Shown piece by piece: positions 1,697 to 4,186 of a stretch of 64,000 nucleotides of DNA. Position 1 is the stretch's first letter, and each line of letters opens with the position of its first letter. Source of the stretch: Alphaproteobacteria bacterium UBA3773 (lineage in GTDB: Bacteria > Pseudomonadota > Alphaproteobacteria > RF32 > CAG-239); contig DFFP01000003.1 in assembly GCA_002372275.1 (NCBI GenBank), forward strand, positions 17,851 to 81,850, written 5' to 3'. The notes beneath the pieces were generated by a model. That model had not been told where the DNA came from. It made no database searches and saw nothing but the letters and a program-made list of their open reading frames with translations. The translations under genes were made by a program, and so were the position numbers.

Positions 1697-4186
1697 TTAT
1701 TTACGTTCTTTCTTCTTCAAGTGCTCAGGCGCTTTTTGATCAGAATGTAAAATCAGTTCTGTTACAGGCTTATAAACCGTCTGACGGAACGGACTCGGCT
1801 CTTCATACACATAGTCACAAATCGTCAAACCAAGGCTGCGCAAGGCTATTTCCGTCGGCAAGAACAAATCTTTACCGCTATCGGTTTTTTGGCCTGTGTG
1901 TGCCATACCGACAATACTGCCGTGATCATTGATTAACACACTGCCGATGACCAAATCTTGAACACGTGTATCAACAATAATCTCTGATCCTTTGTCATCG
2001 CTGTAACGATAACCTAAAACCTTTCCTTTGTTATCCAAATAGTTTTCCGTACCGTTATCAAACGAATCCACATCAAGCATACCGAGTGTCATAAATCCTG
2101 TCTCGCCCGATTTCGGCAATTCCAGCTCAAGCGAAAGCGGTTTATATTCCGTTTTAATATCAAGCATCAAAAGTGCCGTATTTTTACTCGGGTTCACTCT
2201 GACCGCATGCGCCGTATATTCGCGCCCGTTAATTGTCCGAATCTTATTAAAATTGTTTTCATTATCAACCAAATCGGCCGATGTTAACACAAATTCATCC
2301 GAAACAACCAAACCGGAACCTTTTTTACCTGTCATATTCGAAATTTCAACAACAGAAGCTCTGAGTTTATACAGATTTTCCGGCGTTAAGGTATCATAAG
2401 GCTTGCGTGCTGTGATACAAAGGCTTTCCAAAGCTTCTTCTTTTGAAGATGTTTCGACCCATGTATCATCCACTTCCATACAATCACCGCCTGAAATCAC
2501 TTCGCCGCTTTCATCCAAACAGTTATCTAAAATTGTATAATCCGATTGGATGCCGGAATTTTCTTCCACAACGGGCTTTTCTTCGGGTACAACAGGTACT
2601 GCGCAAGCACCGCATCCGCAATCGTTCAATTCACCCTCTGTGACAACCCCTTGGCCTGAAACGCCGCCTTGGCAGTCAACATTTCCTTCGCCGCAAGGCA
2701 ATGTCTCAACACAACCTTCGCCTTCACAAAGCACAAGTTCTTCACCGCAAGGCTCATTAACGGCACAAGCCGCACCCTCTGGGCAATCAACCGGCTGACC
2801 GCAAGGTAATTTTTCAGCCGGGCAATCCCCACACGGCGGACAAGCTTTCGTTTCATGCGCTTTCTCTAAAACAGCCGGACAATGATTAATATCTGCGTCC
2901 ATACGTGTTAATTCACATTGTTTAGCCTGATACAAAGCCTTCGCAAAACGACATTTTGTCGGATTTAAGGCGGCCTCTTCATCAATCAAGGCGTCACGCT
3001 CTAAATCCAATTCTTCAGGCGTTAAACGCGTCATCAACTGATCTTCAAAACCGTGTGCTACCTTCAAATTTTCTGTTGCATCGGCAAAAGCGGCATGCAC
3101 CAGCGCAATTTCTCCGTCAAATTGCCCCAAATTCAAATCGGCATAACCGGTTGTTTCGCCTTCCCACACAATTTTTGTTTTTGAGGGGTTTGAAAGTCTC
3201 CAACGAACGGTCATTTCAGACGTTCCCGAACGTTTATTGGTGGCTTTGGCATTATCATAATCATATCCGTCACAAACATTCATGAAAAAGTTTGTAATTT
3301 CAGCCGTTAAAATATATTCGGGCATTTCAACATTAGATCCTTTTAAGCATATATCTGTCGGCATCGGAACAATGTTATAGCAGTCGCCTGTCACGTGCTC
3401 AAAAATTTCTGCAAAATGCATATTCTTTTCCATCAGGCGACCATGATTTAACACAGCTTCTTTGTCATATCTGCGACAACCGAAAATACGAAAACGATAG
3501 TTACCCATTTTATTTTTCGTCACATTTTCTTCATCTGCAAACAGATTAAAGTCAACATGCTCCAAATAAATCGGCGCCATCGCGCAACAATCTCTGGCAA
3601 GAGCCTGAACAATATAGTCGTTGTACGAAATCGCATATGTCGGCTGACACATCGGCACAGGAGCAGGAGCCGGAGCCGGTTCCGGCAACGGTTCCGGAAG
3701 AAGCTCAGGTATTTTGCATTTTTCGCAAGGTCCTGTATCTACAAGCGGGCCGCTTTCTAAACAACGCGTGCAAGAACCTCCCTGAATAATAGGTCCGCTT
3801 TTATGGCAATTTTTGCACGGTCCGCCCGGAAACAAGCTGCCATCCTTATTCGGCGCTGAAAATAACGAAGCCAAAAACGTATTTGTTGATGCCACCGAAT
3901 GATATGCCGGTTCTTTGGCATAAGTGGTCGTCGCAACCGATGTTCTCAGCCCCGAATTTACGCTTGTGCGTACGGGTGAAAATGTCGGTTGAGCGGCTTG
4001 TTGAACTTCTTTAGAAGAACTTACATCACCAACCGTGACACCGCGGCGTCTTGCCATCATTTCGCGCACACTTCTGTTATATTGCGTTGCGGCAACGGCG
4101 TTCACATTTCTTGAAGGTGCCATTTCCAAAAAGAAGGCGACACCCAAGAAAAGAAATAAGAATTTAGACAGCTTAAATTTTTTCAT
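1697..4186 (-). CDS. Large secreted protein with Cys-rich and Pro-rich linkers and a C-terminal trypsin-like (S1/HtrA-like) domain. The catalytic residues appear substituted, so it is a putative pseudo-protease.
   Basis: 829 aa. N-terminal signal peptide MKKFKLSKFLFLFLGVAFFLEMAPSRNVNA. Cys clusters include CKNCHKSGPIIQGGSCTRCLESGPLVDTGPCEKCK and CPPCGDCPAEKLPCGQPVDCPEGAACAV. A PEPLPEPAPAPAPVP linker is present. The C-terminus (GSGLVVSDEFVLTSADLV ... NTALLMLD ... GSVLINDHGSIVGMAHTG) resembles trypsin-fold motifs, but the His, Asp and Ser positions read D, N and H/G. Confidence 0.6.
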   Translation of the reverse strand: MKKFKLSKFLFLFLGVAFFLEMAPSRNVNAVAATQYNRSVREMMARRRGVTVGDVSSSKEVQQAAQPTFSPVRTSVNSGLRTSVATTTYAKEPAYHSVASTNTFLASLFSAPNKDGSLFPGGPCKNCHKSGPIIQGGSCTRCLESGPLVDTGPCEKCKIPELLPEPLPEPAPAPAPVPMCQPTYAISYNDYIVQALARDCCAMAPIYLEHVDFNLFADEENVTKNKMGNYRFRIFGCRRYDKEAVLNHGRLMEKNMHFAEIFEHVTGDCYNIVPMPTDICLKGSNVEMPEYILTAEITNFFMNVCDGYDYDNAKATNKRSGTSEMTVRWRLSNPSKTKIVWEGETTGYADLNLGQFDGEIALVHAAFADATENLKVAHGFEDQLMTRLTPEELDLERDALIDEEAALNPTKCRFAKALYQAKQCELTRMDADINHCPAVLEKAHETKACPPCGDCPAEKLPCGQPVDCPEGAACAVNEPCGEELVLCEGEGCVETLPCGEGNVDCQGGVSGQGVVTEGELNDCGCGACAVPVVPEEKPVVEENSGIQSDYTILDNCLDESGEVISGGDCMEVDDTWVETSSKEEALESLCITARKPYDTLTPENLYKLRASVVEISNMTGKKGSGLVVSDEFVLTSADLVDNENNFNKIRTINGREYTAHAVRVNPSKNTALLMLDIKTEYKPLSLELELPKSGETGFMTLGMLDVDSFDNGTENYLDNKGKVLGYRYSDDKGSEIIVDTRVQDLVIGSVLINDHGSIVGMAHTGQKTDSGKDLFLPTEIALRSLGLTICDYVYEEPSPFRQTVYKPVTELILHSDQKAPEHLKKKERK

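Follow-up and report, generated by a model that had tools for sequence, protein, structure and literature searches.

The gene at positions 1697..4186 of the window (the whole stretch of DNA analysed here, 64,000 nucleotides) lies on the minus strand, as do all features described below, and encodes an 829-aa exported multidomain pseudoprotease. Its C-terminal domain has the HtrA fold and all three catalytic positions are substituted. The protein is probably a Sec-exported, non-catalytic descendant of HtrA-type (S1C) proteases, with a binding or scaffolding role in the envelope. The reading frame agreed with the original prediction, with an ATG start and a stop codon at 1697-1699 in the ORF listing. 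A ribosome-binding site, AGGAG (4195..4199), was seen in the sequence 8 nt 5' of the ATG, within the 14 nt that separate the gene from the comM stop. Public data hold an identical protein (P0001) and 678 homologue clusters, and relatives are encoded in 199 species-level genomes; public records label the protein only 'hypothetical protein'.

The pseudoprotease domain comprises aa 601-792 (1811..2386). This domain and the central domain of the protein were structure-modelled in isolation, and fold searches revealed a trypsin fold (chymotrypsin-type double beta-barrel) together with HtrA sequence homology in the C-terminal domain. The best Foldseek match was the S1C domain of RsgI9 (PDB 7sjy, identity ~20%). 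A single-sequence phmmer search of PDB sequences gave weak matches to HtrA1, and the family profile gave nothing at E<=0.01 against PDB sequences; the link to solved proteases was instead drawn via the active relatives, which align to DegP at E=1e-18, and via the fold searches. With the whole protein as query, NCBIfam models matched only MarP, MamO and DegP, each below threshold, and no PDZ domain was matched in Pfam even at E<=10.

The three catalytic substitutions had been predicted in the motifs LTSADLV, NTALLML and NDHGSIV, all of which were found in the protein. The phmmer alignment to HtrA1 and the alignment to the active relatives both placed the catalytic His at D638 (2273..2275; LTSADLV aligned to LTNHHVV) and the catalytic Asp at N669 (2180..2182; SKNTAL aligned to KRDVAL), as predicted. 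The proposed Ser to His change in NDHGSIV was misplaced. HtrA1 GNSGGPLVNLDGEVIG and the GGNSGGPLLDKNGNLVG of the active relatives align gap-free to LVIGSVLINDHGSIVG, and the nucleophile position is therefore I747, in VIGSV (1946..1948; DLVIGSV aligned to GGNSGGP). H755 (1922..1924), which had been taken for the Ser position, sits 8 residues downstream in the next hairpin, after L1 (LINDHGSIVG aligned to LVNLDGEVIG), and is poorly conserved (His in just 45/111 homologues). Despite the misplaced Ser, all three catalytic positions are substituted. Among 111 homologues, the D638 position is occupied by Asp in 92, Asn in 15, Ser in 2 and Gly in 2; the N669 position is Asn in all 111, and the I747 position is Ile in 65 and Val in 46.

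The canonical triad was lost in 121/121 close homologues and in all 161 members of the wider degenerate clade. Throughout this clade the GGNSGGP oxyanion-hole/L1 motif is replaced by (L/V)(V/T)(I/V)G(S/G)(V/A), and the Gly two residues before the Ser, invariant in the active clade, is Val, Ile or Leu. The remaining invariants of the active clade (N-x-H, the Asp, G-x-S and the Pro of GGNSGGP, and the Gln of IQxD) are likewise all replaced, and the altered L1 region was modelled as a beta-strand of hydrophobic residues. The trypsin fold is present and no intact Ser/His/Asp triad occurs at the aligned positions. The reading of the domain as a trypsin/HtrA-fold pseudo-protease is thus supported, and strengthened by the family-wide absence of the triad, the loss of the oxyanion motif and the split of the clade from an active sister group of the same architecture.

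This sister group was found by an exhaustive HMM search, which returned ~430-460-aa proteins matching the central and protease domains in the same order (E 1e-14 to 1e-33). The ~440-aa relatives carry a lipobox and an intact His-Asp-Ser triad (HDS in 70/70 short forms), compared to DNI in the window protein. In Rhodospirillales, for example in Shumkonia mesophila, two-domain relatives carry the name 'S1C family serine protease'. The window protein is homologous over both domains to these lipoproteins (MCK5296163.1, Shumkonia mesophila P0343, P0175, P0179) and has in common with them NVCD, GSG, LT, AL and the G-x-L-(I/L)-D hairpin, as well as the absence of a PDZ domain. However, the Rhodospirillales lipoproteins keep the His-Asp-Ser triad with GGNSGGP, the lipobox and a short inter-domain linker, which the window protein does not, and they are devoid of its CxxC repeats, Cys-rich linker, C590/C790 pair and C-terminal tail. 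One active form from Rhodospirillales whose flanks were inspected is not beside comM; these relatives are uncharacterised. In a neighbour-joining tree of 240 columns, midpoint-rooted and built without bootstrap or outgroup, all degenerate forms (161/161) formed one clade, in the order xDL, GNL, DN(L/I/V). Triad erosion appears stepwise in this tree, from xDL to GNL to DN(L/I/V), and the xDL forms suggest that the nucleophile and the general base were lost first, followed by the change from Asp to Asn. A single inactivation of the protease apparently took place on the branch that gave rise to the gut and rumen Alphaproteobacteria.

The protein begins with a Sec signal peptide called by inspection (aa 1-30, MKKFKLSKFLFLFLGVAFFLEMAPSRNVNA; 4097..4186), of the SPase I type and without a lipobox Cys. 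It is the sole hydrophobic segment of the 829 aa in a hydrophobicity window scan, and the Ala at -1 is kept in the homologue alignment. The term 'secreted' is supported as far as Sec export is concerned; the protein may end up in the periplasm or beyond it. Residues 1-123 contain no Cys and hence no lipobox, and a crude pattern match found the first 35 aa free of lipobox-like motifs in 132/136 long-form homologues. The signal peptide is followed by a basic, low-complexity, variable region (aa 31-110, 3857..4096; mean identity 17%, gaps 41%, pI 10.5) and by three tandem G-x-C-x-x-C repeats of 14-15 aa each (aa 111-160, 3707..3856; DGSLFPGGPCKNC, SGPIIQGGSCTRC and SGPLVDTGPCEKC), defined from the homologue alignment, in which their copy number differs. 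A Pro-rich linker comes next (aa 161-184, 3635..3706; ELLPEPLPEPAPAPAPVP..., 20% mean identity among homologues), and the predicted linker sequence, PEPLPEPAPAPAPVP, is present at aa 165-179. A second variable linker, rich in Cys, Gly, Pro and Glu (aa 416-560, 2507..2941), contains 17 of the 34 Cys of the protein. The Cys-rich knots of the original prediction were rejected in favour of the G-x-C-x-x-C repeats and this length-variable, low-complexity linker, whose mean identity is 18% with 49% gaps. A CKNCH motif at aa 124-128 was considered as a c-type haem site and dropped as a family feature, because homologues outside the nearest subclade do not have its His. In the ~440-aa active relatives a short linker separates the two domains; in the 1176-aa P0140 this linker runs to hundreds of residues. 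Three proteins (P0168, P0170 and P0220) match the N-terminal repeats only and have C-terminal ends of unrelated sequence; a separate repeat-bearing family was rejected for them, as they resemble members of this family disrupted by a frameshift or truncation. The conserved C-terminal tail (aa 793-829, 1700..1810; SP(W/F)QQTVYKPVTE..KAPE..K..ERK, mean identity 63%) extends 37 residues past the protease-like domain and is missing in the active relatives, which end right after the protease domain.

Approximately a quarter of the protein is a conserved central alpha/beta domain (aa 185-415, 2942..3634), omitted from the original prediction. Neither the N-terminal region nor the central domain matched a Pfam family, and aa 175-420 matched none at E<=1. 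In the fold search the central domain resembled LptE, CsgG, PelC, PqiC, LpoB and TolB-N at 6-16% identity. The window protein shares the alpha/beta fold of this group, but has no lipobox, and none of the partner genes lptD, csgEF, pelB and pqiAB is adjacent to the window gene. A further difference is a family-specific, near-invariant loop, KMGNYRFRIFGCRRYDKEAVLNHGRLM (aa 226-252, 3431..3511); nowhere else in the protein is conservation as high (82% mean identity). The loop had a pLDDT <50 in the isolated-domain model and is variable in the active relatives. This GNYRFRIFGCRRYD loop is not accounted for by the binding or scaffold model.

Conservation of the dead domain is high. Mean identity was 65% without gaps in the protease-like domain and 62% in the central domain, compared to 17-20% in the linkers. 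The triad is lost and the domain is nevertheless strictly conserved in ~200 species, which is why we describe it as a retained 'dead' protease; judging from these alignments, it is maintained under strong purifying selection and is as conserved as the remaining conserved protein. Some 20 residues have become fixed in the pseudo clade specifically. Those in the dead domain include S636, K668, N669, E714, Y716, Y728, E735, T740, D773 and the C590-C790 pair, and less strictly H763. S636 is conserved in 110/111 homologues and not in the active clade; K668, the residue before the triad Asp position, is invariant (111/111). H763 is His in 100/111 homologues and Pro, Asn or Gln in the other 11, and a His occurs there in 134/161 degenerate forms and in 0/70 active forms. 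C590 belongs to a conserved pre-protease segment containing VDDTW (aa 561-600, 2387..2506), in which V572, D573, D574 and C590 are invariant and which was modelled with low pLDDT. C590 and C790 occur together in 146 proteins, neither is present in 13 and only one in 2, and this covariation fits a disulfide, as expected in an exported protein.

The ancestors of the family were ~440-aa lipoproteins combining an N-terminal LptE/CsgG/PelC-like domain with a PDZ-less HtrA protease bearing His-Asp-Ser, a form still present in Rhodospirillales. After inactivation in the lineage to gut and rumen Alphaproteobacteria, strong purifying selection maintained the domain with new fixed residues; the protein gained the CxxC repeats, the long variable spacers and the conserved C-terminal tail, and the gene came to lie directly downstream of comM. 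Once exported, the LptE/CsgG-like domain could dock or oligomerise at the envelope, like other proteins of that fold, although we infer this location rather than observe it. The dead protease domain would bind a ligand through the groove of the double barrel, which it has kept, and through the surface formed by its new fixed residues, acting as a holdase, adaptor or scaffold and not as an enzyme. The 'binding module' of the original prediction is of the same conditional kind, and candidate ligands are a peptide, an unfolded protein of the envelope and, possibly, a glycan. The S1C domain of RsgI9 is described as protease-like and cellulose-binding (PMC12203970), and HtrA proteins combine chaperone with protease activity (PMC8671199).

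Compared to the HtrA/DegP/DegS/MarP family (MEROPS S1C), the window protein has no catalytic triad, oxyanion-hole motif or PDZ domain, and has an N-terminal LptE-like domain. It is like the MamO-type pseudoproteases in that a degenerate HtrA-fold domain is retained under selection. MamO keeps the His and the Asp, has Thr at the nucleophile position, binds metal via H148 and H263, is fused to a TauE membrane domain and is encoded in the magnetosome island (PMC4794232). By contrast with MamO (and LimO), the window protein has all three residues replaced and no magnetosome context, and no TauE domain was matched in Pfam. A di-His metal site of the MamO type was rejected, because the equivalent of H148 is the invariant K668. 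RsgI9 of Clostridium thermocellum, an anti-sigma factor that sits in the membrane of a Gram-positive bacterium and has an NTF2 domain, differs from the window protein in domain partners and genomic context; Pfam gave no match to RsgI-type anti-sigma or NTF2 domains in the window protein, which has no hydrophobic segment beyond the signal peptide. A literature search on bacterial HtrA pseudoproteases yielded MamO and unrelated systems, with nothing on this family. Few bacterial trypsin-fold pseudoproteases have a known role (MamO, RsgI9 and a handful of others). The natural history of the present family is unusually clear: active ancestors of the same architecture survive in free-living Rhodospirillales, intermediate forms preserve the order of catalytic-residue loss, and ~200 uncultured gut and rumen alphaproteobacterial species conserve the dead domain with the strictness of a housekeeping gene, behind comM. 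This clarity makes the family well suited to asking why a dead HtrA has been retained, and to 'resurrection' experiments. It also marks the window protein as a core, lineage-specific envelope protein of poorly understood gut bacteria.

Other explanations were weighed against the binding or scaffold reading. A decaying relic, that is, an inactivated protease gene drifting to loss, would explain the triad loss only and is contradicted by the conservation in the alignments: the 829-codon ORF is intact, the dead domain has no indels across ~200 species at the identity given above, N669 is invariant, clade-specific residues are fixed, and the ribosome-binding site and terminator context are conserved. 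We give it practically no credence. A hydrolase with a non-canonical catalytic set around the former active site (S636, H763 and D638, for instance) would make sense of the conservation of S636 and H763 in the pseudo clade and not in the active clade, and the three residues should cluster near the old site by homology with chymotrypsin numbering 55/57/214, an assumption on our part. Nevertheless, such an enzyme is highly improbable, given the conversion of the oxyanion-hole/L1 motif into a modelled hydrophobic beta-strand, the non-invariant H763 and the Asn, Ser or Gly found at D638 in 19/111 homologues. By analogy with MamO, whose surface histidines bind metals, the new His/Asp/Asn cluster, together with the CxxC repeats and the Cys-rich linker, might bind transition metals or exchange disulfides in a metal- or redox-active envelope protein. 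The 34 Cys, with the three conserved G-x-C-x-x-C repeats and CKNCH, and the gain of H763 only in the pseudo clade are in line with this possibility. The invariant Lys at the H148 equivalent, the restriction of the CKNCH His to the closest subclade, the widely varying repeat number and linker Cys content and the 11/111 homologues that do not have H763 all speak against it, and we regard it as unlikely. Finally, the dead domain might pair with an active HtrA-type enzyme, a genuine protease, and regulate or activate it by acting on its activity or selection of substrates, in the way that MamE-dependent proteolysis is promoted by MamO; this would be a special case of the binding model. It is rather unlikely, as no active protease gene is linked in the inspected flanks or in the window neighbourhood and MamO activation requires the TauE domain, missing from the window protein.

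The genomic context bears on a further alternative. The window gene has recF, comM and dnaB as neighbours. Directly upstream is comM/yifB (4201..5721), encoding a Mg-chelatase-like AAA+ protein (Pfam ChlI, Mg_chelatase and Mg_chelatase_C), and 3 nt before comM lies the first gene of the three-gene array, encoding a small predicted lipoprotein (108 aa, lipobox LGAC; 5725..6051) that matched no Pfam family above threshold. The gene is directly downstream of comM in 85/86 homologue loci and also in P0140 and P0144, deep members of the DNx clade, and a homologue of the small lipoprotein is found upstream of comM in most loci (32-56% identity, tblastn). An envelope component functionally coupled to ComM and co-expressed with it from one operon, for example in an apparatus for DNA uptake or another trans-envelope process, would fit the preservation of the lipoprotein-comM-gene array in these 85 of 86 loci and in the deepest DNx-clade members, its gaps of 3 nt and 14 nt, the strong terminator only after the window gene, the type IV pilin-like genes nearby in one locus and the inspected active forms and xDL intermediates, which are not adjacent to comM. 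However, ComM is cytoplasmic and the window protein is exported, the gene order within one compact-genome lineage, beside rpsF-rpsR-rplI, may be simply historical, and the competence genes comEC, comEA and pilQ were not found in the inspected flanks. We know of no precedent for an envelope component coupled to ComM and consider the coupling improbable. The strict linkage to cytoplasmic ComM is also not accounted for by the binding or scaffold model. In the aligned sequences, the conserved polar cluster at the former active site (S636, D638, K668, N669 and H763) could point to something more specific than passive binding. With small probability, the old active site may have been rebuilt from this cluster and the Tyr/Glu-rich surface (E714, Y716, Y728, E735); with the GNYRFRIFGCRRYD loop and the CxxC repeats it would then form an undescribed envelope machine of gut Alphaproteobacteria, one that shares its expression with ComM and works together with it (for example in periplasmic DNA uptake or another trans-envelope process), or else the rebuilt site would be a new ligand-binding, metal-binding or catalytic centre.

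Between the gene and the convergent recF there is an intrinsic terminator (1646..1679), 3' of the gene, with a 13-bp stem, a 5-nt loop and a U7 run. A consensus terminator scan missed it; it was spotted by eye and confirmed by folding (-16.4 kcal/mol, z -4.7, with 0/200 shuffles folding as well).

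The 829-aa ORF was found as originally described, at 1697..4186 on the minus strand, with an ATG start. An AGGAG sequence is located 8 nt 5' of this ATG, within the 14-nt gap after the stop codon of the preceding gene. At 20-50 nt past the pseudoprotease stop codon (1646-1679), a 13-bp stem-loop precedes a run of seven U's; RNA folding gave -16.4 kcal/mol (z -4.7), and 0 of 200 shuffles were as stable. This strong hairpin, not reported by a simple consensus terminator scan, sits between the convergent pseudoprotease and recF (410-1624, +) genes, and could terminate the transcripts of both. 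The gene is real and conserved, as demonstrated by its public homologues: an identical protein occurs in public assemblies, 678 homologue clusters were obtained at E<=1e-3, and relatives are encoded in 199 species-level genomes, essentially all of them MAGs of uncultured gut, rumen or faecal Alphaproteobacteria. Every source name seen among family members was 'hypothetical protein', and the literature search found no description of the family.

Alignment with human HtrA1 (phmmer) matched TNAHVV to TSADLV (His position, D638), ADIALIKI to KNTALLML (Asp position, N669) and GNSGGPLVNLDGEVIG to LVIGSVLINDHGSIVG; the last alignment is gap-free and therefore places the nucleophile position at I747. 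The same three correspondences were obtained with the LTNHHVV, KRDVAL and VQGGNSGGPLLDKNGNLVG motifs of much closer, active relatives, whose own alignment with DegP (E=1e-18) includes the canonical motifs. Both alignments confirmed the His-to-Asp and Asp-to-Asn replacements of the original prediction, while its Ser-to-His replacement at NDHGSIV was misplaced: H755 is in a hairpin, 8 residues past I747. Among 111 homologues, position 638 is D in 92, N in 15, S in 2 and G in 2; position 669 is always N; position 747 is I (65) or V (46); and position 755 is His in only 45. The loss of all three catalytic residues was correctly predicted despite the misplaced position, and the window protein is very probably not a canonical serine protease.

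Conservation was measured per region as the mean identity over homologues, with every coordinate verified by translation. By inspection, residues 1-30 form an SPase I type signal peptide, the sole hydrophobic segment, from which the protein is predicted to be exported. A basic, variable region (31-110, 17% identity), three G-x-C-x-x-C repeats whose copy number differs among the aligned homologues (111-160) and a Pro-rich linker (161-184, 20%) precede the conserved, LptE/CsgG-like central domain (185-415, 62%). A highly variable Cys/Gly/Pro/Glu-rich linker (416-560, 18% identity, 49% gaps) and a VDDTW-containing segment conserved in the alignment (561-600) lead to the HtrA-fold domain, which lacks catalytic residues (601-792, 65%, no gaps), and to a conserved tail ending in ERK (793-829, 63%). 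Conservation peaks at GNYRFRIFGCRRYDKEAxLNxGR in the central domain (aa 226-252, 3431-3511, -; 82% identity). This loop has a pLDDT below 50 in the predicted structure and varies among active relatives, its fixation being confined to the degenerate clade; the dead protease domain, or a partner, may dock there. CKNCH (aa 124-128, 3803-3817, -) fits the CXXCH haem-c attachment motif, but its His is kept only in the closest subclade and is absent from the remaining CxxC repeats, and the match is probably coincidental. The linker that joins the central and protease domains varies in length: the ~440-aa active forms have a short one, the window protein has one of ~145 aa (2507-2941), and in the 1176-aa homologue P0140 (5001-8531 of its locus, L090) it spans hundreds of residues with repeated GRFVED-like units. 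These differences suggest a length-adjustable spacer that connects two anchoring points.

Searching 1.84 billion representative proteins exhaustively with an HMM yielded 626 matches at E<=1e-3. Behind the long-form family there was a tier of ~430-460-aa proteins matching both the central and the protease domains. These proteins occur in Rhodospirillales (e.g. Shumkonia mesophila) and harbour lipoprotein signal peptides, strong Trypsin_2 matches (E 1e-27 to 1e-32) and intact LTNxHVV, KRDVAL and GGNSGGP motifs. Their annotation is generic ('serine protease' or 'S1C family serine protease'), and NCBIfam has no specific model for this two-domain form. The triad columns were scored in 231 proteins: 70, exclusively short forms, were HDS (residues at the His, Asp and Ser positions), and the other 161 were degenerate. 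A neighbour-joining tree built from the protease domain and rooted at its midpoint separated the HDS group from a single degenerate clade, in which xDL forms retaining the Asp (P0146, P0149, P0155, P0156 and P0166) were basal, followed by GNL (P0145) and then DNL, DNI (the window protein) and DNV. The window protein descends from active enzymes; a single loss of the triad is the best reading, though short of proven because the tree has no bootstrap support or outgroup.

All of the active-clade catalytic invariants were replaced in the degenerate clade (N and H of TNxH, D, the G two residues before Ser, Ser, Pro and the Q of IQxD). Column comparison with the active clade revealed ~20 further positions fixed only in the degenerate clade, including Y606, L626, S636, K668, N669, G712, E714, Y716, Y728, E735, T740, D773, E779, S784, C590 and C790. 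C590 and C790 were both present in 146 proteins, both absent in 13 and single in only 2, the pattern that would be expected of a disulfide and of an oxidising, extracytoplasmic location. H763 was His in 134/161 degenerate forms vs. 0/70 active forms. A decaying relic is ruled out by the newly fixed residues, by the 65% identity across ~200 species and by the absence of indels. The window protein is under purifying selection, and these patterns indicate a new, constrained function of the dead domain.

The pseudoprotease gene is preceded, on its own strand, by comM/yifB (4201-5721, -; Pfam ChlI, Mg_chelatase and Mg_chelatase_C) and by a gene for a predicted 108-aa lipoprotein without family assignment (5725-6051, -). 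The gaps in this three-gene array are 3 nt and 14 nt, and it is flanked by divergent dnaB and convergent recF. The linkage to comM is operon-like: in 85 of 86 homologue loci the gene immediately upstream was comM, in the same orientation (the remaining locus begins inside the gene), with the small lipoprotein gene ahead of comM in most. In homologue loci, rpsF-rpsR-rplI is usually divergent from the array; dnaB takes that place in the window. Of the DNx-clade members examined, the deepest, P0144 (895 aa) and P0140, shared the layout rpsF-rpsR-rplI, small gene, comM, pseudoprotease gene. The active form P0179 and the xDL intermediates P0149 and P0155 did not adjoin comM. In the sample examined, the move to a place behind comM goes together with complete degeneration to the DNx state.

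We consider a non-catalytic binding or scaffold mechanism in the envelope slightly more probable than not. The window protein would act in the cell envelope without catalysis, its central domain serving as a docking or oligomerising element, like lipoprotein families of the same fold, and its dead protease domain as a ligand-binding element; it might be a holdase, an adaptor or a scaffold. There are three precedents: HtrA proteins are credited with dual chaperone-protease activity (PMC8671199), the protease-like S1C domain of RsgI9 binds cellulose (PMC12203970), and in MamO a degenerate HtrA has taken on metal binding and MamE activation (PMC4794232). Alternatively, the protein might act with a true protease, as its partner or regulator. 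A metal or redox role would draw on the CxxC repeats and on the new cluster of His, Asp and Asn. The di-His site of MamO has no counterpart here, an invariant K668 occupying the position equivalent to H148 (PMC4794232). Functional coupling to ComM is a further alternative, and the comM linkage might be either functional or merely historical. The protein might also be a non-canonical hydrolase.

The window protein is homologous to S1C/HtrA proteases but lacks the triad, the oxyanion motif and the PDZ domain, all three of which define the functional family. Its nearest relatives are the uncharacterised two-domain S1C lipoproteins of Rhodospirillales. Functionally, it groups with the bacterial trypsin-fold pseudoproteases MamO and RsgI9-S1C, although their partner domains and contexts differ. 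A dead protease is unsurprising in principle; the family is nonetheless a tractable case because of its graded active-to-dead series, very strict conservation and invariant comM linkage.

Elsewhere in the window, four large ORFs matched no Pfam family at E<=1e-5: 9289-13296 (-, 1335 aa), 55657-58596 (-, 979 aa), 53913-55481 (-, 522 aa) and 51752-53008 (+, 418 aa). Two paralogous sensor phosphatases (38360-40681, -, and 29365-31248, -) harbour PDC/Cache sensor, HAMP and SpoIIE/PP2C domains, the former with an additional C-terminal HATPase_c_2 domain; with a nearby protein-kinase-like ORF (25570-27033, +), they look like partner-switching-type signalling genes. The sole tRNA is tRNA-Glu CTC (31674-31748). 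From ~0.42-0.47 over the initial 10 kb, G+C drops to ~0.33-0.35 around 46-56 kb; GC skew stays negative across the whole window (1-64000).
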